Shown here: positions 5,118 through 58,290 of the stretch, in pieces | How positions within the stretch are numbered: the stretch's first letter is position 1 | How the letters are laid out: every line of letters starts with the position of its first letter | Source of the DNA: Nanobdellota archaeon | GTDB lineage: Archaea > Nanobdellota > Nanobdellia > Pacearchaeales > GW2011-AR1 | DNA length: 64,000 nt | Direction of reading: 5' to 3' | NCBI GenBank assembly: GCA_049324275.1 | Contig: JBMOLG010000001.1 | Span: 47,606 to 111,605, forward strand | Notes under the pieces: generated by a model | Database searches by the model: none | Told to the model about the DNA's origin: nothing | What the model saw: only the letters and a program-made list of their open reading frames with translations | Position numbers and translations under genes: made by a program

Positions 5118-5189
5118 GGTGGTTGTAGTTTAGTGGCAGAACATGTGGCTGTGGCCCGCATAGCGAGGGTTCGATTCCCTCCTTCCACC
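5118..5189 (+). tRNA. tRNA-His (anticodon GUG) with encoded G-1; acceptor stem has two U-U mispairs by eye
   Basis: Anticodon stem TGTGG/CCGCA with loop CTGTGGC (U33, GUG, G37). T-arm GAGGG-TTCGATT-CCCTC. G-1:C73 pair typical of tRNA-His. Acceptor GTGGTTG vs CTTCCAC leaves two U-U mismatches. Confidence 0.55.
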
Positions 5190-5212
5190 CTGAAAATTAA
5201 AAAAAAATAAAA

Positions 5213-27606: not shown

Positions 27607-28938
27607 CTATAATTTTAAAACCTCCCCATCCTCAATCAAATGACATTGTTTACCTAATTTATATCCTAATTCCGATGCAAGTTCTGCCATTGGCTGTGTT
27701 TTATCCAATCCCCCATGAGCTGGAATTATATGCTGAGGTGAAAGCAGATTAATCATATCCCTCAAGTCTTCTCTGCCAGCATGACCTGAAACATGAACAT
27801 CACGAAATATCCTGGCTTTTCTTTTTTTTAAGCGATTTTCCATTTTTTCAAAATTGGCTATATTAACATCTGTCGGAATTACACTTGAAGAAAATATTAC
27901 ATTGTCACCATGATTTACTCTTAATGGCAATTGATTTTTTGAAATCCTTTCCAATATGGAGCCTGGCTCTCCCTGATGGCCTGTGCAGACAACAAGATAT
28001 TTACTTCTATTTTTCTCAACATTCTTCAAAATTTTTTCAACCTGCCTTCGATATTTAAACATCTTTACCCCGTCTAAAAATGGAGCCAAATTAGATTCTC
28101 TCGCTGCAGTTACATATTTATCTAAACTTCTCCCTAAGAATATAACTTCACGGTCTAATTTTTTTCCAAACTCAACAACACTTTTAAGACGCGCAATATG
28201 GGAAGAGAATGTGGTCACAATTATCCCAGAATTTTTATTTTGAATATTAAGCAAAGATTCTTCAAGCAGGGCACGCGCGATTTTTTCAGAGGGAGTTTTT
28301 CTATCTGTGCCAGAGTATAAGGAATCTACAATAAAAGCATATACTCCTTCTTTTGCGATTTCCATTAACTTACTATAATTTGGCTTTAAACCTACAATAG
28401 GATTATTGTCTAATTTGAAATCATTTGCATATAAAACAACGCCTTTATTCGTATGAATTGCTACCAAACAAGTCTGCAACGTTGAATGCGTCATATTGAT
28501 AAAATCAACTTTATACTTTTTTTCCTTCCCTTTAATGAAAAAAGAATTGTTTGGTGGAATTTGTTTGATGTTGTTTTTTAAGTTAAGGTCGTTGTCTTTC
28601 AGTAGAGAATTCAAAACTGAAAGTGTGAATGGAGCACCATAAATAGGGGCATTATATTTATCTGATATAAATGGAACTGCACCAATGTGGTCAAGGTGAG
28701 CATGTCCAATGAACTGTGCCCGAACTTTATTCCTTATATCATTTATAACTGAATCTTCAGGAATTGCCTGAATAGATTTTAATTTTTTTTCGTTATAGTG
28801 GACTTTCTCTTTTTCCTCTAACTGAACTATGGGCGGAAGATGAAATCCTTCATCAAAAATAAATGCATCATCTCCAGTTTCCAATGCAACCATATTTTTA
28901 CCGACTTCACTAAAACCGCCAATTGTATGAATTTTCAT
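27607..28938 (-). CDS. rnj: ribonuclease J (archaeal type; metallo-beta-lactamase/beta-CASP)
   Basis: IGHAHLDHIGAVPF (HxHxDH), later DSLYSG, and HVSGHA at the C-terminus. 443 aa. Confidence 0.8.
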   Translation of the reverse strand: MKIHTIGGFSEVGKNMVALETGDDAFIFDEGFHLPPIVQLEEKEKVHYNEKKLKSIQAIPEDSVINDIRNKVRAQFIGHAHLDHIGAVPFISDKYNAPIYGAPFTLSVLNSLLKDNDLNLKNNIKQIPPNNSFFIKGKEKKYKVDFINMTHSTLQTCLVAIHTNKGVVLYANDFKLDNNPIVGLKPNYSKLMEIAKEGVYAFIVDSLYSGTDRKTPSEKIARALLEESLLNIQNKNSGIIVTTFSSHIARLKSVVEFGKKLDREVIFLGRSLDKYVTAARESNLAPFLDGVKMFKYRRQVEKILKNVEKNRSKYLVVCTGHQGEPGSILERISKNQLPLRVNHGDNVIFSSSVIPTDVNIANFEKMENRLKKRKARIFRDVHVSGHAGREDLRDMINLLSPQHIIPAHGGLDKTQPMAELASELGYKLGKQCHLIEDGEVLKL

Positions 28939-29026
28939 ATTTTTCTTTTATGTATTATTATTTATATATTTTTAAATTTGTTCAATTTCAATATATCATT
29001 TAGAATTTAAATTTTTTAATCAAAGA

Positions 29027-29210
29027 AATCAATGGCCCTGAGGGTCCTAAAAAATCTTCGATTTTTGGGAACTTCAATTATTACAAATTGAAGTGATTTG
29101 AACCTACAACCTCCAGCGGGTTCTAGGAGTCCAGCAACCAAAACACAACCTCCAGCGGGTTCTAGGAGTCCAGCAGCCTAAGAAAAAATCCAATGGCCCT
29201 GAGGGGATTT
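29027..29210. repeat. three direct copies of the tRNA-Lys 3'-end/trailer sequence plus a two-unit tandem repeat of period 39 nt
   Basis: aatccaatggccctgaggggattt at 29187-29210 is identical to 29308-29331 inside the tRNA. A degenerate copy sits at 29027-29044. 31-nt units acaacctccagcgggttctaggagtccagca at 29106-29136 and 29145-29175. Confidence 0.8.
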
Positions 29211-29314
29211 TACTCACAATTTGCATTTCAAATAATGTTAATAAGATAGTTTTTCAAAGCGAATTGCTCGCCCCCGACTAGAACTTATTTGAATTAATGT
29301 GGGTTCAAATCCAA

Positions 29315-29389
29315 TGGCCCTGAGGGGATTTGAACCCCCGACACCCAGGTTAAGAGCCTGGTGCTCTAACCGAGCTGAGCTACAGAGCC
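29315..29389 (-). tRNA. tRNA-Lys (anticodon CUU)
   Basis: Reverse complement folds as acceptor GGCTCTG/CAGGGCC, D-arm GCTC...GAGC, anticodon stem CCAGG/CCTGG with loop CTCTTAA, T-arm GGGGG-TTCAAAT-CCCCT, discriminator A. Confidence 0.85.
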
Positions 29390-29479
29390 TCATTAAAAAT
29401 TAAAAGTGTTTAGTTTAAAAAACTTAGGTATGAAATGATTAATAATAAATTTTAAAAATCTAAAAAACGCAAAAATAAA

Positions 29480-29707
29480 ATGGAAAATTTAGAACAAATT
29501 GAACAAAATGCATTAAATCTATTAGATTTTAAACTTGAAGGTAACGTGAAGGCCTTATCTCATATGTCTGCTGAAAGTTTTGAATTAGCTTTAGATTTTT
29601 TGTTAGGTAAAAAATATTTAATTCAAAGAGGACAAACAGCTAAATCCTTAAGGTATGAAATAACTCTTGAGGAAGTAGATTATCATTCAAGAAATTTTAA
29701 ACAATAG
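29480..29707 (+). CDS. hypothetical small protein
   Basis: 75-aa ORF upstream of rps19e. Confidence 0.35.
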   Translation: MENLEQIEQNALNLLDFKLEGNVKALSHMSAESFELALDFLLGKKYLIQRGQTAKSLRYEITLEEVDYHSRNFKQ

Positions 29708-32770: not shown

Positions 32771-33130
32771 ATGAAAATGGTTAATTGTAGAAATGAAAAT
32801 TCAGAAAGATGTAACGAAAGAAAACAAAAGTTTACAAGTTTCAGAGACAACGATAAATATACTTTAGTTGTAAATTGCAAATTTCCTGAAGAGTGTAAAA
32901 GTTTATGTCCAGTTTATGATGTCTATGTAAATGATAGCTTATATTTATCAAGAGTAAGTTTTGAATTTTTAAGTCCTGTAAAAGAAACAATAATAGGTAC
33001 AATTCATGATGATAGAATGGGTAGATTGCACAAAGTATTTGAGTATTATAATCAGCATGGACTCGTAGATGGCGAATACCCTCAAAAGAATGAACCTTTT
33101 GTTCCAGGAGTTGACTTTGATGACTATTAG
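32771..33130 (+). CDS. hypothetical Cys-containing protein
   Basis: 119-aa ORF preceded by GGAGG. Eight Cys residues. Confidence 0.4.
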   Translation: MKMVNCRNENSERCNERKQKFTSFRDNDKYTLVVNCKFPEECKSLCPVYDVYVNDSLYLSRVSFEFLSPVKETIIGTIHDDRMGRLHKVFEYYNQHGLVDGEYPQKNEPFVPGVDFDDY

Positions 33131-33376
33131 TGATTCATATTATAATTTTTATTTTTTCTTTTATTTTTTAAGCTTAAGCGAGTAAAGAAATTTCCTAACT
33201 AGCTCCCCGAGAAGATCCTCAAAAAGTAATAAAATAAATCATAATAGGCAATACTAATTTAATATAATCCTTATATTTAATTTATTTTTTTCTTTTTGTT
33301 AAAAATATTAAAAGAAATTTTTAATAATATTCAAGTTGTCATTATTGTTAAGAAGTAAATCTTCTCGAAGAATAAG

Positions 33377-33997
33377 ATGGAAGACATAAAAGAAAAAATT
33401 GAAAGAAACATAGATTCTGAGACTATCTGGCTGATTGATAACTTCAGAACTTTTTGTGCCCCTCATGATGATAGTTATAATCTTGCAATCAATGGCTTGA
33501 CCGACAATGGTAAACCTTTTCCGGAATATGCAGAAATATTAAAAAATTCTCAGATAATCAATATCGGTTGTGGCCATGACCTTGATTCAGCGAAACTTTC
33601 AGATTTTCTTTTCAAGGCATTTAAGATCTCCAAATACCTTGGTGTTGACCCTTACTCAGAAAATTTATGGGATTTACCTAACAAAGAAAAGATAGATGGC
33701 CTCGGTTATCTTGTTAAACAATCCGACAACTCTGCAAATATTATTACCTTTGGATTAGACACTTTCATAATACAAAACAAATCTTATGCTGAAAAGTTAG
33801 TTGGCGAAATATTTCGAGTAGTTCCTGAAGATGGGATCTATCTAAGTAGCGGTTCTACATTTCTTGAAATCTATGCAGACAAGCTTTTTCCCATCAAAAA
33901 TGAACTTGGGTATAATCTTCAGACTTACATGAAAAAACCAACTAAATCTCTGAAAGTAACAGATGCACTTAATACTTATTGTAAGGAGGTAAAATAA
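33377..33997 (+). CDS. hypothetical protein
   Basis: 206-aa ORF, first of three tightly packed unknown genes. Confidence 0.4.
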   Translation: MEDIKEKIERNIDSETIWLIDNFRTFCAPHDDSYNLAINGLTDNGKPFPEYAEILKNSQIINIGCGHDLDSAKLSDFLFKAFKISKYLGVDPYSENLWDLPNKEKIDGLGYLVKQSDNSANIITFGLDTFIIQNKSYAEKLVGEIFRVVPEDGIYLSSGSTFLEIYADKLFPIKNELGYNLQTYMKKPTKSLKVTDALNTYCKEVK

Positions 33998-33999
33998 AA

Positions 34000-34230
34000 A
34001 TGGAAAATAGTAAACTTATCGAAACAATTGAAAAATTAGAGAACAAAGCTAAGAACTTGGAACAATCCAAATCAACCGGCAATCTTCAACAGATTGCTCG
34101 TGCATATTTTAATGCAGGAATCTTGAGCGAAAGAGTCGGATTAAAAGAAAAAGCACAATTAAACTATGCTAACGCCTCAAGATATGTACTTGAATTAGCT
34201 AAAGATGTTTATGCCGGAGCTTTTCAATAA
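34000..34230 (+). CDS. hypothetical small protein
   Basis: 76-aa ORF starting 3 nt after the previous stop. Confidence 0.35.
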   Translation: MENSKLIETIEKLENKAKNLEQSKSTGNLQQIARAYFNAGILSERVGLKEKAQLNYANASRYVLELAKDVYAGAFQ

Positions 34231-34250
34231 TTTTATTTTTAGTTAGATAA

Positions 34251-34619
34251 ATGGAAAACATAGAAGAAAAAATATATCAAGAATTGAAAAATGGTTCGAA
34301 AGAGATCTATGACGAAGGAATTTACATAATTCAAAACGGAATAGAAATAGGAGGGCATATTGAAACAAGACATTATAATGCAATGCTTGCTATCCCGGAG
34401 GCATACCAAATTGCTGAAGCAGAACTTGATGATGTAGATTGCGCAGAGAATGCAATTTTCAGATACATAAAATATCAATCAAAAGCAATTACGGCAATAA
34501 CAAATGCTTATTCAAGATACATAAGAGAAACAAGTTTAACAGAAAAAGATAAATCAGAAATTTATGATGTATTTAGAATTTTCTTGCCTAGTATAGATGT
34601 GAGCAATTTAAGTCTATAA
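34251..34619 (+). CDS. hypothetical protein
   Basis: 122-aa ORF. Confidence 0.35.
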   Translation: MENIEEKIYQELKNGSKEIYDEGIYIIQNGIEIGGHIETRHYNAMLAIPEAYQIAEAELDDVDCAENAIFRYIKYQSKAITAITNAYSRYIRETSLTEKDKSEIYDVFRIFLPSIDVSNLSL

Positions 34620-34665
34620 TTGTTATAATATGAAGTTCTTAAATTATTGAATTAATGAAAATTAT

Positions 34666-36012
34666 TTATTGTAATTCTTTTTTTAATATATTTTTTAAAG
34701 CCCTTATATTTCCTTCTTTTTCTGCGATTTCTTTTAGGAAAAGCTCTTTAGCTAATTTTATTCTTCTAGACATTTCTTCTTCTAATCTAGATCTAATTTC
34801 AAAGCTTAATTTTTCATATTTACATCCAAATTCTCTTTCGGCTGTTTTTATCTCCGCTTCTTTAATCTGATGTGGCATTAATTTTGCATCAAATAAGAGT
34901 AATTCTTGGACATGAGGATCTAATAATCTTTCATGCCTTCTAGATAAGTCTTCAAGAATGCTTTGTTTAAGCATTTTTAATGGGAAATTACATTCTATTG
35001 CAATTTCTTTTAGAGTTTTTACCCATTTATCCTTATCATTAATCCAATTTAATCCATTTAATCTTTCTTTTAATTTAATCGCAATGTCCTCGATTCTTAT
35101 AGCATTAATATCTGGGGGATGTTCCTGTTCTGTATAAATTCCTTTAAATAAATGAGGAGTATTTTGCCGTTGTTTATTCAACTTTCCGGATTTTGCCTTA
35201 TTAATATGCTGAATATCTTTTACATATGCAGGAAAATAATCTGATAACAAATCTTGGCCAAATTCTTCCAGGATAATTAATTTTTCTTCGTCAATCCCGT
35301 GTGATGTTTTTCTTTCAGCTTTTTCTTCAAGTTTTCTTTCTGAATCTTTTTGTTTTGCCTTTGCAATATAAGCCATAAGGCCTTTTCTTACTGCCATGTA
35401 TTTTTCATAAGCATTTCTAAATTCGCCATTGCCTTCTTTGAATCCCTTGCTTATAATTTCAAATTGTGGATTTATTTCTGATAATGCTTCAAAATAATCT
35501 TTGTTAAAAGGAGCGCAAACATTTCCTTTCAGCCAGTTTAAAATTGTATCCCAAGTTACGCATGAAGTATTTGTTTTTGAGGAATATTTTTGAATCAGCC
35601 CATAGGTTAAATCTGAATATGCAAGATATTCTTCAGTTGAAAAATCATCATTATTTTTTAGTATTTTATCTTCGTTTGAATCAAATCCCCTAAACAATAA
35701 ACATCTTAGTTTTGGAATCCAAATTCCATTATTATTTTTTTCAAAGAGCAATTTTTTCGCTTCCCTGTAATTTTCCGCACGTAATTCTAATGTTTCATCA
35801 ACTTTGTTCAAGGGAATCTTTATGTATTCTTTTCTGTATAATACAACGTCTCCCTTTTCCAGATATTTTCCGGTAATCTTTACATAAGTATCTCCCTGAG
35901 AAATGTAAACCGGCATATTCCCATCTATAAAAGTGTTTCCTGCATCTGTAATGATATTTAATAGAGTCATGTTACTATTTAATAGTAGAACTCTTTTTTT
36001 AAATTTTTGCAT
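34666..36012 (-). CDS. hypothetical protein (448 aa)
   Basis: Long ORF at the end of the valS-led same-strand gene string. No motif recognised. Confidence 0.45.
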   Translation of the reverse strand: MQKFKKRVLLLNSNMTLLNIITDAGNTFIDGNMPVYISQGDTYVKITGKYLEKGDVVLYRKEYIKIPLNKVDETLELRAENYREAKKLLFEKNNNGIWIPKLRCLLFRGFDSNEDKILKNNDDFSTEEYLAYSDLTYGLIQKYSSKTNTSCVTWDTILNWLKGNVCAPFNKDYFEALSEINPQFEIISKGFKEGNGEFRNAYEKYMAVRKGLMAYIAKAKQKDSERKLEEKAERKTSHGIDEEKLIILEEFGQDLLSDYFPAYVKDIQHINKAKSGKLNKQRQNTPHLFKGIYTEQEHPPDINAIRIEDIAIKLKERLNGLNWINDKDKWVKTLKEIAIECNFPLKMLKQSILEDLSRRHERLLDPHVQELLLFDAKLMPHQIKEAEIKTAEREFGCKYEKLSFEIRSRLEEEMSRRIKLAKELFLKEIAEKEGNIRALKNILKKELQ

Positions 36013-36046
36013 TAAAACATTAAAAAATTCAGATTAAATTATAATA

Positions 36047-36442
36047 TTACCAAAACTCTCTTTCTCCAATAAGTCCCGGATAAGTCCTGTTTTTGCGATT
36101 TGAATCATAATTTGGATAATTCATTCTCATCACAATTTTCTCTTCTTTTGCATATAATTCGTCTAATTTAGAAGAAATTAGACGATTATAATAAATTTCT
36201 TCGCGAGGGCTTGGCTTGCCAAAATATTCGCATTTTCTTGATTTTAGATTATGTTTATTAGCGATTAATTTTTTCATTGCAAATCCCCAATAGCATCTCC
36301 ATTCATTCTTTTCATTCTGGCACCATGGGCAAAAACTACAATATTTTGTAATATATTTGAATTTTCCATAAAACCTGCTCTTAGAACCAATTTGTTTCAT
36401 TTCTTCTGACAAGGCAAAATCTATCTCATTAAACATATTCAA
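36047..36442 (-). CDS. small Cys-rich (putative zinc-binding) protein, RCYWG family paralog 1
   Basis: KYCSFCPWCQNEKNEWRCYWGFAMK...RKCEYFGKP. Shares the RCYWG and C...YYG/YFG blocks with the next gene. Confidence 0.45.
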   Translation of the reverse strand: MNMFNEIDFALSEEMKQIGSKSRFYGKFKYITKYCSFCPWCQNEKNEWRCYWGFAMKKLIANKHNLKSRKCEYFGKPSPREEIYYNRLISSKLDELYAKEEKIVMRMNYPNYDSNRKNRTYPGLIGEREFW

Positions 36443-45791: not shown

Positions 45792-45912
45792 TGAGCCTGC
45801 GCAGATTCGAACTGCGGACCCCTGCCTGTCTGAAATCAATTGATTTCGGACACCCAAAATCTTGATTTTGATGTTATCAGAGCAGTGCTCTACCTGGCTG
45901 AGCTACAGGCTC
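45792..45912 (-). tRNA. tRNA-Ile (anticodon GAU) with a ~47-nt intron at the canonical 37/38 position
   Basis: Reverse complement folds as acceptor GAGCCTG/CAGGCTC, D-arm GCTC...GAGC, anticodon stem CTGCT with loop CTGATA|intron|A, 3' stem GGCAG, T-arm CGCAG-TTCGAAT-CTGCG. The intron contains the 16-nt palindrome GAAATCAATTGATTTC. Confidence 0.75.
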
Positions 45913-50693: not shown

Positions 50694-52241
50694 ATGCCAA
50701 CATTAAACTGGATTGGAAAAGAAGCAGTCATAAATCATGATAAAGAGGTTCCATTCAAACTTCTCAAAAAGGTTAAAGCATATTCTGTGGGAAATAATTC
50801 TCAAAATTTAATTATCAAAGGAGATAATTTAGAAGGGCTTAAAGCACTAATGCCTTATTATATTGGAAAAGTAAAATGTGTCTATATAGATCCGCCATAT
50901 AACACAGGAAATGAAAATTGGGTTTACAATGATAAAGTAAATTCTCCTAAAATAAAAAAATGGCTCGGAAAAGTTGTCGGAGGAGAAGCTCAAGATTTAT
51001 GCAGACATGACAAATGGCTTTGCATGATGTATCCTCGACTTAAGCTTTTGAGAGATTTGTTGAGTGATGATGGCGTGATCTTTGTTAGTATTGATGATAA
51101 TGAGAATCATAATCTCAGATTTTTATTAAATGAAATTTTTGGCGAAGTGAATTATATTCAAGAGATAGTCTGGCATAGTAAGTACACAGTATCAAATGAT
51201 GCAAAATTCTTTTCAAGACAACATGAATATGTTTTATGTTATGCTAAAGATATTCAAAAAGTATCCGCTGTTTTCTCTGTTCCAAGAACTGATGAGGCAA
51301 ATAATAGATATTCAAATCCAGATAATGATCCACGAGGCCCATGGAAAGCCACCCCACTGCATGCAAAAAGTGGAAAAGAAGAAAATAATTTTGAATATGT
51401 TTTTAAAAATGGAATAAAATAGAAACCTCCTAAGGGACGCTATCATCGCTTTAATAAAGAAAGTTTAGAAAGATTAGATAAAGAAAATCGATTATGGTTT
51501 GGAAAAGATAAAAAAGCAATGCCTTCCGTAAAAACTTTTCTATCAGAAGTTTCCGAAAAAATGAAATCTGGAAGCATCCTCCCATTTAATTTAGTAGGAC
51601 ATACTCATAAAGCAAATGAGCAACTTGCAAATTTAATGGACAAAGGAACATTTGATAATCCAAAATCAGTAGATTTAATTAAAATTTTAAGTTCAATGGT
51701 AACTTCCACTTCCGACATAATTCTCGACTCATTCGCAGGTTCGGGAACAACGGGACATGCGGTTTTAGACTTGAACAAAGAAGATGGGGGAAACAGAAAA
51801 TTTATTTTGATTGAGATGGAAGATGATATTGCTAAAAATATTACAACTGAACGAATCAAAAGGGCAATAGAAAAATATGATTACAAAGACGGATTTGAAT
51901 ATTGTGAATTAGACAAGCCTCTATTCGATGAGAACGGGCAGATAGAGGAAACTTGCGAGTTTAATCAGTTTGCAACTTATATTTATTTTACCGAAACCCA
52001 AACAAATATAGACAAGAACAAAATAGACAAAAACTTCATCGGAGAATTTGGAGAAACAGAATATTATCTTATCTATAAAGAAAAAATGAAAAATGTTTTA
52101 GATAAGAAGTTTTTATCTAAGTTAAAAAAGACAAAAAATAAAAAAGTCATTTATGCTGACTTTTGTATGATTGATGAAGATACATTAAAAATTTCTAACA
52201 TTCAATTTAAACAGATTCCTTATGAGGTGAAGGTTTATTGA
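50694..52241 (+). pseudogene. mod: Type III-like N6/N4 DNA methyltransferase (Mod) interrupted by a single in-frame TAG at 51420-51422
   Basis: ORFs 50694..51422 and 51519..52241 are in the same frame. The sequence reads through as ...FKNGIK*KPPKGRYHRFNKESLERLDKENRLWFGKDKKAMP.... Motif IV VYIDPPYNTG precedes motif I FAGSGTTGHAV (beta-class order), with the LNWIGKE start typical of this family. Confidence 0.75.
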
Positions 52242-52715
52242 ATGATAAAAAATAATTACATAAAACTTTTTGAAAAATTATCTGAACAAGAACCAAATTC
52301 AATAATCCTTATTGAAAAATTTGAGGATTTAGGCTTCTTTTTAACAGATTTTGAATCAATGCATGAAGAGAAATTTATATTTTTGCAAAAGATTAGAGAA
52401 AAAAATAAAGGGGGTAATTGGATAGAAAAATTTTATATTAAATTAGCCCCAAGAGGGTTCTCTTCTTTAGAAGAATTTAATAAAAATGAACAGCAAGAGA
52501 AATTTAATCATAAGACTCTTAAGGCAACAATAATAATTACAATTGCAACAGCTTTAAATGTTTTAGTAACTCTTTTTATATTTCTATTGAATTTGGAAAA
52601 ATCAAATTGGGCAAAACCTGCATCCCTTATACTAATTGGAATTTTTATTAGTTTTCTAACAGGAATATTAATTAAAGAAATTTGGTATTTTATATTTTTC
52701 AAAGAAAATGATTAA
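52242..52715 (+). CDS. small membrane protein encoded between mod and res
   Basis: 157 aa: soluble N-terminal part plus two C-terminal TM helices (IIITIATALNVLVTLFIFLL, LILIGIFISFLTGILI). Its start abuts the mod stop. Confidence 0.45.
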   Translation: MIKNNYIKLFEKLSEQEPNSIILIEKFEDLGFFLTDFESMHEEKFIFLQKIREKNKGGNWIEKFYIKLAPRGFSSLEEFNKNEQQEKFNHKTLKATIIITIATALNVLVTLFIFLLNLEKSNWAKPASLILIGIFISFLTGILIKEIWYFIFFKEND

Positions 52716-52768
52716 CACAAATAAAATAAAAGAAATAGTTAAATTTACAAAGAACTCAATTAAATAAA

Positions 52769-55039
52769 ATGGTAGAACTAAAAAAATATCAGCGAAAATC
52801 AATAGACATATTAAAAGATTATCTTAAGGAATTGGAGAAAAATGGAAGCAAGAGGGCGTTTATGTATATTACTGAAACGCCGTATAAATCTGAATTTTTT
52901 AATGAGGTTCCTTTTGTTTGCATAAAAATACCTACAGGAGGGGGAAAAACCTTTGTTGGTTGTCATTCTGTTGTTGAGATTATGTCTTCTATCTTAAAAC
53001 ATAAAATGGATAGAGGTATTGTTATGTGGTTTGTCCCATCAGAAGCAATAAAATCACAAACCCTAAAAAAATTCAAAGACCGAAACGATTGGCACAGAAA
53101 AGTTTTAGACGAAGCATTTGACAACAATATAAGAATTTTCTCAAACGAAGAAGCATTAAGAATAAGAAAAGAAGATGTTGAAGATAATATCTGTATAATA
53201 ATTTCAAGTTTAGAAGCATTTAGAAAAGAAAAAGCAATTCAAAATAAATACAAAGTTTATCAAGAAAATGGAGCACTATTAAGCCATTTTGAAAATTTAG
53301 AAGAAAAAGATTTTTTAGAAAAGGACGAACATAATACAATAATAAATTCTCTTGCAAATGTCATAAAATTATCAAATCCTTTAATTGTAATAGACGAAGG
53401 GCATAAAACAAAAACAAAACTTTCTATTGAATTTATGAGAGACTTGAACCCAAGTTTTATTATTGAGTACACAGCAACGCCAAGACCAGAAAGCAATATT
53501 TTAGTTGAGATTCACTCTTCTGAACTAAAAGGAGAACAAATGGTTAAGCTCCCGATTGTTCTTGAAAGTACAGCTCAATGGCAAAATTCAATTTTAAGAG
53601 GAGTTTTGAAAAGAGAAGAGCTAGAAAAAGAATCAAAAAAGAACAAATCTGAATATATAAGACCAATAGCACTTTTACAAGCAGAACAAGAAAAAGAATC
53701 AGATAATAAAATTACTGTCCAAAAGATCAAAGATTTTTTGATAAAAGAGAGAAAAATTCCAGAAGAAGAAATTGCAATTAAAACTTCAAGCATTAATGAA
53801 TTAGAAGGAATTAATCTTTTTAGCCAACAATGTAAAATAAGATATATTATAACTGTTAATGCTCTTGCAGAGGGGTGGGATTGTTCTTTTGCTTATGTTT
53901 TAATTTCTGTCGCAAATATTGGCTCAAAAATAGCAGTTGAACAGATTATTGGAAGAATTGTAAGAATGACTAATGCTCGAAGAAAAGAAAACGAAGCATT
54001 AAACAGGAGTTATATTTTTGCATCAGCAAAGAATTTTCAGGAAGCAAGCGAACAGATAATTTTGGGATTAGAGAGCAACGGATTTAGCAAGCTAGATTTA
54101 ATCAATGCAACAAACGAAGATCAAACACATGAATTAGATGTTGAAAAAGCTGTAAAAGAAAATTTATTTGTTCCCATGCTCGCTTTTGAAGATGAAAAAT
54201 TATCTTTTGAAGATTTAATCGGAGAAGAGTTTGAACTTGCAAAACAAAATGCAGAATTTGATTTTACTATTAATTATGATAATGATGGAAGAGCATTAAT
54301 TGATATTCAAGGCCAAGACAAATGGGTAAAAAGTGCTCAACAAATCTTAAAGATAACTTACAAAGATAAAAATTTTTCAAAAGAGGAACTTATCCAATGG
54401 TTAGACAAAAAACTAAGATTTACTATTTTAGAAAAATCAGACAAAATTAAATTTATACAAAAAGTTATAGAATATCAATTAAAGAAAAAATCTCTTTCTG
54501 AACTTTCAGTAAACAGATATGTTTTAGTTACAAAATTAAGTGAGATAATAAATCATATATTGGAAGATTATGCTAAAAAGAGATTTGATGAATTCATTAA
54601 AAATAAAAAAATAAGTGTGAAAGATTTTGAAAAATTCCCGGAAAAAATAACACTTTTCCAAGAGATATTTCGGGGATTTAATAAAAATTATTATTCAAAA
54701 ATAGACAGGTTGAATAAAGAAGAATTAAAATTTGTTGAAAGATTAGATTTAGAAACATTACCAAATATTAAATTTTGGATAAGAAATAGAGAAAAGAAAG
54801 ATCCTTTTTTCATACAAGGCTGGAAAAAAAATAAATTTTATCCAGATTTTATTGCTGTAACTAAGAATAATAATATTATTGTTTTAGAGTGGAAAGGAGA
54901 AGATAGAAAAAGCAATGAAGATACACAATATAAGGAAGAAATAGGAAAAATATGGGAATCAATAGATAAAAATTTGCATTTTTTCTTAGTCCATAATGGA
55001 AATATTGAAGAAATATTATCTAAACTAAAAAATTTATAA
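52769..55039 (+). CDS. res: Type III restriction enzyme Res subunit (SF2 helicase plus C-terminal PD-(D/E)xK nuclease)
   Basis: Walker A KIPTGGGKTF, DEGH box LIVIDEGHKT, motif VI QIIGRIVR, and a C-terminal nuclease-like YPDFIAV...VLEWKGE. Confidence 0.7.
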   Translation: MVELKKYQRKSIDILKDYLKELEKNGSKRAFMYITETPYKSEFFNEVPFVCIKIPTGGGKTFVGCHSVVEIMSSILKHKMDRGIVMWFVPSEAIKSQTLKKFKDRNDWHRKVLDEAFDNNIRIFSNEEALRIRKEDVEDNICIIISSLEAFRKEKAIQNKYKVYQENGALLSHFENLEEKDFLEKDEHNTIINSLANVIKLSNPLIVIDEGHKTKTKLSIEFMRDLNPSFIIEYTATPRPESNILVEIHSSELKGEQMVKLPIVLESTAQWQNSILRGVLKREELEKESKKNKSEYIRPIALLQAEQEKESDNKITVQKIKDFLIKERKIPEEEIAIKTSSINELEGINLFSQQCKIRYIITVNALAEGWDCSFAYVLISVANIGSKIAVEQIIGRIVRMTNARRKENEALNRSYIFASAKNFQEASEQIILGLESNGFSKLDLINATNEDQTHELDVEKAVKENLFVPMLAFEDEKLSFEDLIGEEFELAKQNAEFDFTINYDNDGRALIDIQGQDKWVKSAQQILKITYKDKNFSKEELIQWLDKKLRFTILEKSDKIKFIQKVIEYQLKKKSLSELSVNRYVLVTKLSEIINHILEDYAKKRFDEFIKNKKISVKDFEKFPEKITLFQEIFRGFNKNYYSKIDRLNKEELKFVERLDLETLPNIKFWIRNREKKDPFFIQGWKKNKFYPDFIAVTKNNNIIVLEWKGEDRKSNEDTQYKEEIGKIWESIDKNLHFFLVHNGNIEEILSKLKNL

Positions 55040-55124
55040 ATTAGTCTACCGAACTATCCTTCTTACATCCAGTTAACCTGAAAAACCCAACAAAACTTTT
55101 AAACATCATACGCAAATCAAATAG

Positions 55125-56912
55125 ATGGCAGAGATAATTATCAATGAATCATTTTCAGACGATGATTTTCTTTTTGACAGGGTTGAAAATGGGGAGTTTG
55201 AATCACCTGAAATCCTCAAGCTGAAAGTTGATGCAGAGGAGATTGTGAAGGACAAAAAAATCAACGAGCTTATTTCTTATGACATAATAAAGAAAAATCT
55301 AGAGTATAAGCTTCCCTACCAGACTAATGGGGCTTTAAGAATTTTGAGGGACTTTAATGGCTCTGCTCTTCTTGCTGATGAGGTCGGGCTCGGCAAAACA
55401 ATAACAGCAGGGTTGGTATTGAAAGAGAGTATTGTGAGGGGATTTGTAACTAAGGCTTTGATTTTAACTCCTCCGTCGCTTGTGGACCAATGGGTTTCTG
55501 AATTAAAAGAAAAGTTTGAGCTTGATTTTAAGATTATTGAGAATCCATCAGACTGGAAAAAAGCCAATTTTGCCATAGCTTCGATAGATAGAGTAAAGGC
55601 TTATGATAAAGAATTAAGAAGATTCCGCCATGAAGAGGCCCATAATATTTCATGGGATATCTTGATTGTCGATGAGGCTCATAAGTTGAAAGAGAAAAAC
55701 ACAATTCGGTGGAAGTTTATTGACAGCATTCCAAAAAAGAGATTTTTAATTTTAACAGCAACGCCATTCCAAAATGACCTGATTGAATTATACAATCTGC
55801 TTCATTTGCTGAAAAAAGGGCATCTCGGGACAATAAAAGAGTTCAGAAAAAAATTTTTGCATAAGGGAAACAAAAGATATCCGTTAAATCCAAAGGAATT
55901 GAAAGCAAAGCTCGATGAAGTGATGATAAGAAGAAGGAGATATGAAACAGGAATTAATTATAAAAAAAGAATACCAAGAATTGAAGTTGTCGAATTAACT
56001 GATGAAGAAAAAGTCATCTATGACAATACATGCGAGCTTCTGAAGTCAAATTATTTTTCAGCAGGCGGAAGCGAGATTAACGGGCATTTGATAATTTATG
56101 CTATTTTACCGAAGATAACAAGCTCATCAAAGTCAGCAATGGAATCGCTGAACAAGATTGCTTCTGATGAGAAGTACCATAAGGCAACAAGAGAACTGGC
56201 AGAAGGCATTTTAGAAGATTATAAAAAGCTGAAAAGAGATTCTAAGATTGAAAAATTAGTTGAAATTGTTGAAAGGATCTTAAAAGAGGATGCTGAATCA
56301 AAAATATTAATTTATACAAAACATCCTACCACTCTTGAGTATATAGCAGAAAAATTAAAGCCATACAATATTAAGGTTGTAGAATTTACAGGGGGGCTTA
56401 ACAGAGAGGAGAAAACTGAAAAGATAAAAGAGTTCAAAGAGAATGCACAAATAATGATTAGCACTGAGACGGGTTCAGAGGGGCTTAATTTTCAGTTTTG
56501 CAACAATCTCATAAATTATGACCTGCCATGGAATCCCATGTCTGTTGAGCAGAGGATAGGAAGGCTTGATAGAATCGGGCAAAAGAAAGACATGAACATA
56601 TTCAGCCTCGCAACAAAAGGCACAATGGAAGAGCATGTGGTAGACCTGATAATAAACAAGATGTGTTGTGTAGGCTTAGTAATTGGAGAGCTTCCAATTA
56701 TCTTGTTTAACCTCGGGCTTGACAGCGAAGGAGTTACAGGAAGGAGCAGAATAGAAGAGCATTTGATGAATTCGTTTATAGATTCAAAGAACAATTTAGA
56801 CAAATTTGCAATGGAAATTGAAAAAATAGGGAAGCTTATACAAAGAGGAATAGACGATTATAAAGAAATAAATGAACAAAACTCACAATTACTAGATGAA
56901 AAGCGAAATTGA
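55125..56912 (+). CDS. SNF2-family helicase
   Basis: All SNF2 hallmark blocks: DEVGLGKT (I), LIVDEAHKLK (II), LTATPFQNDLIELYNLLHLL (III), QRIGRLDRIGQKKDMNIFSL (VI). Confidence 0.9.
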   Translation: MAEIIINESFSDDDFLFDRVENGEFESPEILKLKVDAEEIVKDKKINELISYDIIKKNLEYKLPYQTNGALRILRDFNGSALLADEVGLGKTITAGLVLKESIVRGFVTKALILTPPSLVDQWVSELKEKFELDFKIIENPSDWKKANFAIASIDRVKAYDKELRRFRHEEAHNISWDILIVDEAHKLKEKNTIRWKFIDSIPKKRFLILTATPFQNDLIELYNLLHLLKKGHLGTIKEFRKKFLHKGNKRYPLNPKELKAKLDEVMIRRRRYETGINYKKRIPRIEVVELTDEEKVIYDNTCELLKSNYFSAGGSEINGHLIIYAILPKITSSSKSAMESLNKIASDEKYHKATRELAEGILEDYKKLKRDSKIEKLVEIVERILKEDAESKILIYTKHPTTLEYIAEKLKPYNIKVVEFTGGLNREEKTEKIKEFKENAQIMISTETGSEGLNFQFCNNLINYDLPWNPMSVEQRIGRLDRIGQKKDMNIFSLATKGTMEEHVVDLIINKMCCVGLVIGELPIILFNLGLDSEGVTGRSRIEEHLMNSFIDSKNNLDKFAMEIEKIGKLIQRGIDDYKEINEQNSQLLDEKRN

Positions 56913-58290
56913 ACAAATACAGGAATTTACAATTAATTTCTTCAAAAATCTGAAATGCAAAATTTCAGACGGAGAAATCATAATTATAGAAAATGTTCCA
57001 AAAGATTTTGAAGAATTCTTCAAAAAAAAATCACCTTATCAACTTGCCTTTTCAGAAGAAAGCAAAACTGAAGAATCAATTTTAGTTGCAAAAGGAAGCA
57101 GTTTATTGAATGCAATCCGGTCATTTTTAGAAAAAAGCGGAAGCACTACATTATTGAAAATAGATTTTGATGTTGACTATAAAGATTTTGTGAAAAAATA
57201 TTGTTTTAAAAATGCAGAGATTTCAAATGTTCAGGTGAAGAAAAAAAATAATTTCTTTTCAAGGTTTACTTTTTTGACTACATTCCAATATCTTAATGAT
57301 AAAGAACAAATCTTAAATGAACTTTATGTGCACAATGGAGAAATTGTAGAGGGAGATTTGCATGGGTATGAGGTGGTTGAGGGAAGAAAAGAAGATGTTT
57401 CTGTTGAAAAAATTGAAGAAGATTGCAATATTGCGAAGCAAAATCTTAAGCTGAGAATTGAAAAGAAAACAGAAGAGGTAAAGAATTTTTTGAATCAAAG
57501 ACTGGAAAAAGAAATTTCCAGAATTCAAGGGCATTATATTAATCATTCAGAAGAATTAAAGGCAGGATTAATTGAAGAGCTCAATAAACTGAAGCAAGCC
57601 GGGGAAAAAATTTCAAATGAAGATGAAAAATACAAGCTTAATAATAAGATAAATGAAGTGCTGAAAAAAATTGATTCATTGGAGCGAGGAGAAACATTTG
57701 AAAAAATTGAAAAAGAAAAAAGTTCGGCAATCAACGGAGAAACACAAAAGCACAGCCTCAATATCCATAATAAACTTATTAACACAACAATAATATATTA
57801 TCCGGTGTATCATTTTGAAATTCTTTTGAAAAATAAGTTTGCAAACAGAGTTGTTACAATAATTCATAATCCATTGACCCAAGAAACAAATTCATTGTTT
57901 TGCGAGTCATGCAAATTACAAACTGATGATTTATATTTATGCTCCTCAGGCCATATATCGTGCATCAAATGCATGAATCGATGCATGAGCTGCAGTGGCG
58001 AGTTTTGCGAGCCATGCCTTAAAAAAAGGTGTGAATATTGCGGGGCTAAATTATGCAATAATTGCGGGGAAAGATGCTTTAGCTGCGGAAAAACTTTTTG
58101 CCAGAATCACATGAAAAATGATTCAATTACAGGAAGAAGAAGTTGCATTAACTGCCTTAAGCAATGCCCTAAGTGCTTTGAATATTCCGCTCCAAGAAAT
58201 TTCAAGAAAGATAAGAATGGCATGCAGATATGTCCAAGATGCTTTTCAAAAGAGTTTGGAAGAAATGTTGCAAGAAGAATTTTCGAATAA
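56896..58290 (+). CDS. hypothetical protein with coiled-coil middle and a C-terminal cluster of about 10 CxxC pairs (multi-zinc-ribbon), translationally coupled to the SNF2 helicase
   Basis: 464 aa. Start overlaps the SNF2 stop by 17 nt. The C-terminus reads CESCKLQ...CSSGHISCIKCMNRCMSCSGEFCEPCLKKRCEYCGAKLCNNCGERCFSCGKTFCQNH...CINCLKQCPKCF...CPRCF. Confidence 0.5.
   Translation: MKSEIEQIQEFTINFFKNLKCKISDGEIIIIENVPKDFEEFFKKKSPYQLAFSEESKTEESILVAKGSSLLNAIRSFLEKSGSTTLLKIDFDVDYKDFVKKYCFKNAEISNVQVKKKNNFFSRFTFLTTFQYLNDKEQILNELYVHNGEIVEGDLHGYEVVEGRKEDVSVEKIEEDCNIAKQNLKLRIEKKTEEVKNFLNQRLEKEISRIQGHYINHSEELKAGLIEELNKLKQAGEKISNEDEKYKLNNKINEVLKKIDSLERGETFEKIEKEKSSAINGETQKHSLNIHNKLINTTIIYYPVYHFEILLKNKFANRVVTIIHNPLTQETNSLFCESCKLQTDDLYLCSSGHISCIKCMNRCMSCSGEFCEPCLKKRCEYCGAKLCNNCGERCFSCGKTFCQNHMKNDSITGRRSCINCLKQCPKCFEYSAPRNFKKDKNGMQICPRCFSKEFGRNVARRIFE

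Follow-up and report, generated by a model that had tools for sequence, protein, structure and literature searches.

The window, by which we mean the whole 64-kb stretch of DNA analysed here, has a GC content of ~30%. Among its genes are those for three archaeal ribosomal proteins (S19e, L31e, and L15e), a beta-CASP nuclease of the RNase J type, and the large subunit of a hydrogenase together with the maturation proteins HypA and HypC, as well as an intron-containing tRNA. The locus under study locates within a 541-nt intergenic region (28939–29479), between the RNase J gene on one side and a short ORF followed by S19e and L31e on the other. In this region, an intact gene for tRNA-Lys(CUU) is followed by further copies of its own 3' end. 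Read along the minus strand, the order is the tRNA with copy 1, segment A, copy 2 with a T6 run at its trailer end, segment B, another T6 run, and copy 3. Beyond copy 3, 87 nt of DNA with 10% GC lead to the start codon of RNase J. The coordinates of these features are collected in the table.

The other two tRNA genes of the window, tRNA-His (5119–5190) and the intron-containing tRNA (45792–45912), have plain trailers, and their ends are not duplicated. The latter gene, on the minus strand, is 121 nt long, carries an intron of ~46 nt after the anticodon loop, and scores 52.9 bits with Rfam. It is missed by ARAGORN in the bacterial setting, and its anticodon, judged by eye, looks like GAU (Ile).

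We notice several further features in the surroundings. The 75-aa ORF between the tRNA and S19e (29480–29707, plus strand) has no match in Pfam or PHROGs. We rejected its assignment as YhbY: the YhbY-like gene found ahead of S19e in two of the three relatives we examined is a different one. In two of these three relatives, YhbY is itself preceded by NFACT-R, which lies 15 kb away in the present genome (44592–45164). Six consecutive ORFs at 32771–36442 (119, 206, 76, 122, 448, and 131 aa) gave no match in PHROGs (0/6), and the four of them compared with Pfam gave none there; the same genes on the Logan contig L059 are likewise without a Pfam entry. At 50694–58290 on the plus strand, two adjoining ORFs, each with a match to one part of the N6_N4 DNA methylase family, point to a gene that is split or frameshifted. 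Downstream of them follow a ResIII helicase-type protein, a SNF2/helicase protein, and a 464-aa ORF without a Pfam match, and the group as a whole looks like a restriction-modification or defence-type island.

Table. Features of the tRNA-Lys(CUU) repeat locus and its borders, in window coordinates
Feature	Coordinates	Strand	Description
RNase J gene	27607–28938	minus	one border of the intergenic region
Copy 3, putative oldest displaced tRNA 3' end and trailer	29026–29044	minus	19/20, one deleted base
Segment B, putative 141-nt remnant	29045–29185	none	43% GC, no terminal inverted repeats
AT-rich 9-bp hairpin	29069–29094	none	ACTTCAATT / AATTGAAGT; -8.2 kcal/mol, z = -4.65; in segment B
T-arm-like fragment	29089–29116	minus	75% identical to the tRNA over 28 nt; 14/16 at 29089–29104
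Tandem unit 1	29106–29142	none	37 nt, 54% GC; in segment B
Tandem unit 2	29145–29181	none	37 nt, 57% GC; in segment B
Copy 2, attR-like, putative displaced earlier tRNA 3' end	29186–29210	minus	25/25 identical to copy 1
Segment A, putative 96-nt remnant	29211–29306	none	33% GC, no ORF
Dyad-symmetric site, candidate recombinase core-type	29301–29337	none	GGGTTCAAATCC, 13-nt spacer, GGATTTGAACCC
Copy 1, attL-like	29307–29331	minus	minus-strand sequence AAATCCCCTCAGGGCCATTGGATTT
tRNA-Lys(CUU), intact, no encoded CCA	29315–29389	minus	ARAGORN; Rfam RF00005, 69.1 bits, full length, model positions 1–71
Trailer sequence carried by the repeat			TTGGATTTGAACCC
Trailer sequence associated with copy 2 as candidate ancestral tRNA end			TTGGATTTTTT
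75-aa ORF, then S19e and L31e	from 29480	plus	other border of the intergenic region

Direct repeats and the dyad-symmetric site

The exact direct repeat is 25 nt long and consists of the last 17 nt of tRNA-Lys(CUU) and 8 nt of its trailer. On the minus strand, the tRNA end with copy 1 reads AAATCCCCTCAGGGCCA and then TTGGATTT, while the trailer end of copy 2 merges into the T6 run as GGATTTTTTCTT. Copy 3 retains an exact core of 15 nt (29030–29044), and its match of 19/20 includes a 1-nt gap. All copies share the orientation of the intact 69-bit tRNA and lie downstream of it on the minus strand. The repeats are real and far beyond chance; for the 25-nt repeat, 100 shuffles gave no match. None of the repeats at the locus, including the 25-mer, the core of copy 3, and the tandem unit, recurs elsewhere in the 64-kb window.

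The original prediction, made from the letters of the DNA, had placed a tRNA-Lys(CUU) gene here, with a 24-nt repeat (17 nt of tRNA and 7 nt of trailer) at 29187–29210, a degenerate copy further downstream at 29027–29044, and a 12-bp inverted repeat at the tRNA 3' end. ARAGORN and the Rfam tRNA model confirm the gene, the repeat proves to be one base longer than proposed, the degenerate copy is found at 29026–29044, and the inverted repeat is perfect.

Comparing copies 1 and 2 revealed that identity is complete inside the repeat (25/25) and falls to 2–3/10 in each flank. Because the identity drops at once at the repeat edges, the copies bear the signature of site-specific recombination or target duplication and not that of decaying gene duplicates. 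Decayed tandem tRNA genes were rejected on account of these sharp borders.

The two 12-bp arms of the dyad-symmetric site (29301–29312 and 29326–29337) form the longest perfect inverted repeat with a loop of 3–20 nt in the whole 64 kb. As an RNA hairpin, the site reaches -19.8 kcal/mol (z = -2.2). Copy 1 can also be read as GGGTTCAAATCCAAT, GGCCCTG, and AGGGGATTTGAACCC, that is, as 15-bp arms (13/15 symmetric) with a 7-bp spacer. Around GGCCCTG, 14/20 positions are symmetric in copy 1, 12 of them contiguous, compared with 9/20 in copy 2 and 5/20 in copy 3. The core sites of tyrosine recombinases are composed of two inverted arms around an overlap of 6–8 bp. Copy 1 displays this arrangement, which is weaker in copies 2 and 3, and by this resemblance copy 1 may represent a recombinase core site.

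Two other sequence similarities are observed around the copies. A 14-nt inverted repeat, 93% complementary, links 29095–29108 (GATTTGAACCTACA) with 29298–29311 (TGTGGGTTCAAATC); it encloses a 217-nt stretch with the tandem units, copy 2, and segment A, and is the dominant element of the long-range fold predicted for the region on either strand. In addition, CCTAAAAAATC just after copy 3 (29046–29060) resembles CCTAAGAAAAAATCC just before copy 2 (29176–29190) on the plus strand. This low-complexity motif thus occurs on opposite sides of the two repeat cores, and the resemblance may be due to chance.

Segments between the repeats

The two segments bounded by the repeats contain no credible ORF and differ in composition from their surroundings. 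The native intergenic DNA on the two sides has 10% and 14% GC, far below segments A and B and the tandem units. In a genome of 30% GC, this contrast suggests foreign or recently acquired sequence, and it points to either recent foreign DNA or DNA under constraint. We infer that segment A is the remnant of the most recent insert and segment B that of an older one.

Segment A carries imperfect terminal inverted repeats of 23–28 nt (~29212–29239 and 29282–29304), which start 1–2 nt from each terminus and read ACTCACAATTTGCATTTCAAATAATGTT at one end and ACCCACATTAATTCAAATAAGTT in the reverse complement of the other. Their alignment score of 24 is reached by 7/2000 shuffles, a post hoc test to which we give moderate weight. 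The corresponding score of segment B is reached by 1559/2000 shuffles. A second copy of segment A is absent from the 64-kb window and from 532 kb of relatives. Segment A also departs from MITEs, which are defined by dispersed copies and a target duplication of 2–10 bp, in being single-copy in the 64 kb and flanked by a repeat of 25 nt.

Runs of five or more T are found at just two places downstream of the tRNA on the minus strand, at the trailer end of copy 2 and shortly ahead of copy 3; segment A has none. The T6 run of copy 2 (an A-run at 29183–29188 on the plus strand) overlaps the trailer end and extends just past the copy. Oligo-T tracts serve archaeal RNA polymerases as terminators. By this token, copy 2 and its T6 run look like the former end of the tRNA, terminator included, and the present tRNA looks to be 121 nt away from this former terminator.

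Segment B contains the AT-rich hairpin and the tandem units. The two units repeat with a period of 39 and are 35/37 identical, the first 31 nt being exact. TCCAGC, read directly from the sequence, occurs twice per unit and four times in all. The units are absent from the TRF listing. Their folding is unremarkable, with z-scores of +0.6 and +0.7 for the single units and of -1.1 and +1.45 for the pair. The two units of 31 identical nt with a period of 39 had been predicted correctly, but the hairpin proposed for them (CTCC...GGAG) is no better than in shuffled sequence. The T-arm-like fragment, also in segment B, does not fold as a T-arm. It contains one of the three occurrences of GGTTCAAATC in the 64 kb (29095–29104, minus strand), all of which lie at the present locus, against 0.23 expected.

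Search for a mobile agent and for related loci

We compared ~65 ORFs of the window with Pfam or PHROGs and observed no integrase, Cas1, PolB, or viral hallmark. In particular, no tyrosine or serine recombinase gene lies in or beside the repeat-bounded segments, which are only 96 and 141 nt long, and a tblastn search with an integrase from the locus of a relative was negative. Exact-pattern scans of IMG/VR with the 25-mer, the 3' 20-mer of the tRNA, and the tandem unit gave no match, and scans with both ends of segment A returned chance matches in unrelated phage contigs. A single scan of JGI metagenomes with the 20-mer hit the coding region of an unrelated organism on four contigs, and blastn against phage and plasmid collections yielded nothing meaningful. 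An attP-bearing element was found in none of these collections.

The closest relatives, MAGs of Woese-, Pace-, and Nanoarchaeota, reach protein identities of at most 75% for RNase J and at most 73% for S19e. We compared 58 GTDB loci obtained via the RNase J gene, 51 of them scanned with ARAGORN, and three S19e loci. None of the 51 scanned loci has a tRNA-Lys in the 4-kb flanks of RNase J, and the three S19e loci have no tRNA. Neither an S19e homolog near RNase J nor sequence homologous to the region upstream of RNase J is present in any of the 58. Gene order upstream of RNase J varies among the relatives themselves, so that the break in synteny at the tRNA carries little weight.

Logan contigs of the same strain (SRR32167786) break twice in the locus, one (L060) ending at 29135 and the other (L059) starting at 29302. 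The first break is explained by the 31-nt identical units in an assembly with k=31. The second is not accounted for by any 30-mer repeated within the window, and may reflect microdiversity to the left of 29302 or low coverage. A look-up of the spurious ORFs that span the repeats, made in search of variant contigs, returned nothing on record.

Origin of the repeat locus

Taken together, we lean towards site-specific insertion at the 3' end of tRNA-Lys(CUU), at least twice in succession, with the 96-nt and 141-nt segments as the surviving remnants; the enzyme would most likely be an integrase of the tyrosine-recombinase type. Under this reading, which we hold slightly more credible than its denial, mobile DNA would have entered the tRNA 3' end at least twice, and the 290 nt downstream of the tRNA would be stacked scars. 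Recombination would take place within the short block of identity, with a likely crossover at or close to CAGGGCC, a 7-bp spacer of the acceptor 3' strand that is bordered by the inverted arms of T-arm and trailer. The reconstructed attP would read GTGAGTAAAATCCCCT-CAGGGCC-ATTGGATTTGAACCCAC. Each element would provide the tRNA with a fresh 3' end and trailer, the earlier ones being shifted downstream. The resulting order on the minus strand would be the tRNA with copy 1, remnant A (the newest), copy 2, the older remnant B, copy 3, and finally the original trailer. The bodies of the elements would have been deleted later, leaving 96 and 141 nt. With the same somewhat favourable confidence, we regard the present tRNA-Lys(CUU) as the regenerated target gene, and the scars are probably without present function.

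The original prediction had likewise proposed successive integrations. The sharp repeat edges, the GC contrast, and the displaced T6 run fit this proposal, as does the extension of the repeat 8 nt beyond the tRNA end, which includes the trailer. The distal copy 3 is the most degenerate, as suits the oldest displaced end. A tyrosine recombinase is favoured by the dyad symmetry, which extends through the repeat and mirrors the T-arm. Against the proposal, neither a mobile-element gene among the ~65 scanned ORFs nor an attP-bearing element in the collections searched was found. Moreover, it is a demanding history for two elements each to be cut to ~100 nt while the 25-nt repeat stays perfect. Terminal inverted repeats of 23–28 nt are not a usual feature of the attP arms of integrases, and this counts against integration in the case of segment A.

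The same inverted repeats lead to a different explanation, in which segment A and one repeat together (121 bp) constitute a miniature non-autonomous element. Such an element would have been inserted by a staggered cut that duplicates a 25-bp target at the tRNA 3' end, in the manner of a family-2 casposon, with new insertions always landing at the copy proximal to the tRNA, so that the direct repeats would be target-site duplications. We consider this, the main rival, unlikely, although it would explain the imperfect terminal inverted repeats of segment A and the perfect 25-nt repeats on both sides of it. Target duplications of casposons span 14–35 bp and overlap tRNA 3' ends, the T-loop region serves as the upstream recognition segment, and tandem insertion is known (PMC5137440, PMC4779613); the 25-nt repeat with its 17 nt in the tRNA falls in this range. 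Family-2 casposons, as those at tRNA-Pro of Aciduliprofundum boonei and tRNA-Leu of Methanosarcina, include solo terminal inverted repeats and tandem insertions. The present locus shares with them the overlap of the repeats with the tRNA 3' end, the T-loop immediately upstream, the candidate terminal inverted repeats of segment A that abut the direct repeats, and the presumed stacking proximal to the tRNA. However, family-2 casposons are 8–20 kb long, whereas the element here would be 96 nt, and the overlap of the repeat with the tRNA is 17 nt here and 5 nt in A. boonei. Neither of the casposon hallmarks, the Cas1 casposase and the family B polymerase, was detected in Pfam scans of the 64-kb window, and the older segment B has no terminal inverted repeats. 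The dyad symmetry runs into the repeat (AAATCC/GGATTT) and matches the T-arm of the tRNA perfectly, as predicted for the core site of a recombinase and not for a target duplication derived from the host. The single occurrence of segment A in the window and the 532 kb of relatives, and the post hoc nature of its inverted-repeat test, also weigh against this explanation.

A more specific form of it appears improbable to us. The 121-bp unit would be a non-autonomous mobile element (a mini-casposon, or else a miniature integrative element moved in trans) that specifically targets the tRNA-Lys 3' end of a DPANN archaeon and stacks proximal to the tRNA like spacers at a CRISPR leader. The break of the Logan contig at 29302 would then reflect heterogeneity of a live site in the population.

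Replication errors at the quasi-palindromic trailer of the tRNA, by template switching and slipped duplication, would create the locus without a mobile element and would include the tandem 39-nt units. The perfect 12-bp palindrome arm could come from correction of a quasi-palindrome, a plain tandem duplication is present in the locus, and no mobile-element gene was found. But slippage copies contiguous DNA, while here the recurrence is limited to 25 nt, and the intervening stretches of 96 and 141 nt are related neither to each other nor to the body of the tRNA. The intervening DNA also differs in composition from the native intergenic DNA. We rate an origin by replication error as unlikely too, a little below the miniature element.

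In AT-rich archaeal genomes, an island of high GC is often the mark of a structured RNA, and the GC values of segments A and B would fit this. The region might have a function, as a small RNA or a long structured 3' trailer transcribed together with tRNA-Lys, or as a regulatory leader or protein-binding iteron array upstream of RNase J. The fold of the whole region somewhat exceeds shuffles in stability (z-scores of -2.0 and -2.6 on the minus and plus strands), the tandem units hold four copies of TCCAGC, and no terminator-like T-run interrupts the stretch from the tRNA to copy 2. The fold signal, however, stems from the repeats and inverted repeats, and the units and segment A alone give z-scores from -1.1 to +1.45. 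Beside the tRNA, the permissive Rfam scan returned only matches far below gathering scores, and the absence of homologous sequence upstream of RNase J in the 58 relatives also speaks against a function. The 12-bp trailer hairpin competes with the T-arm and acceptor of the tRNA, and would hinder function rather than serve it. A functional RNA or regulatory role, supported by nothing beyond composition, is very improbable. We also considered and rejected a C/D-box sRNA, as C or D boxes are not visible in the sequence by eye, and the primer-binding site of a retro-element, as the plus strand, judged by eye, is without a complement of CCA.

The T-loop-like minus-strand sequence noted in the original prediction (29090–29140 there, 29089–29140 here) is indeed present, with 14/16 identity to the T-arm region of tRNA-Lys, but its suggested role as half of a split or permuted tRNA is effectively refuted: ARAGORN and the permissive Rfam scan detect no tRNA-like fold in 29020–29314, Rfam at E<=10 over 28900–29450 gives no tRNA-clan match besides the real gene, the would-be T-stem GTAGG/CACTT is unable to pair and no acceptor strand follows, and the complementary partner half is absent from the window.

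If successive integration is the true origin, the locus preserves traces of two or more past invasions at the tRNA-Lys(CUU) gene of a reduced DPANN genome. The 25-nt att sequence, together with the candidate 7-bp crossover and its arms, would then be a bait for the integrating elements of this lineage. For annotation, the tRNA 3' fragments here would have to be taken as scars and not as genes. No general picture is altered by the present locus.

In its architecture, copy 1, with 15-bp arms and a 7-bp spacer, is like the loxP, FRT, and dif-like core sites, in which inverted arms flank an overlap of 6–8 bp. The likeness is one of architecture only; neither a recombinase nor a product of recombination was observed.

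The closest known counterparts are the attL/attR scars of tyrosine recombinases, as in Islander-type islands and in Thermococcaceae and Thaumarchaeota. Fragments of tRNA 3' ends are pervasive as attR scars in archaea (PMC9897764). Archaeal att repeats can be short (the median in Thaumarchaeota is 17 bp), and re-use of one site leads to arrays (PMC6563490). The present locus differs from these scars in that it holds no integrase or cargo and its segments are just 96 and 141 nt, and its block of identity covers only the last 17 nt of the tRNA and 8 nt of trailer. Its host belongs to the DPANN archaea, and our literature searches gave no description of such a site in DPANN; the locus is most likely a known kind of genomic fossil in a lineage for which these searches returned none. 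It has in common with the known scars the co-oriented 3'-end repeats behind a regenerated tRNA, a repeat length within the archaeal range, a site re-used as an array, and a most distal copy that is the most decayed.
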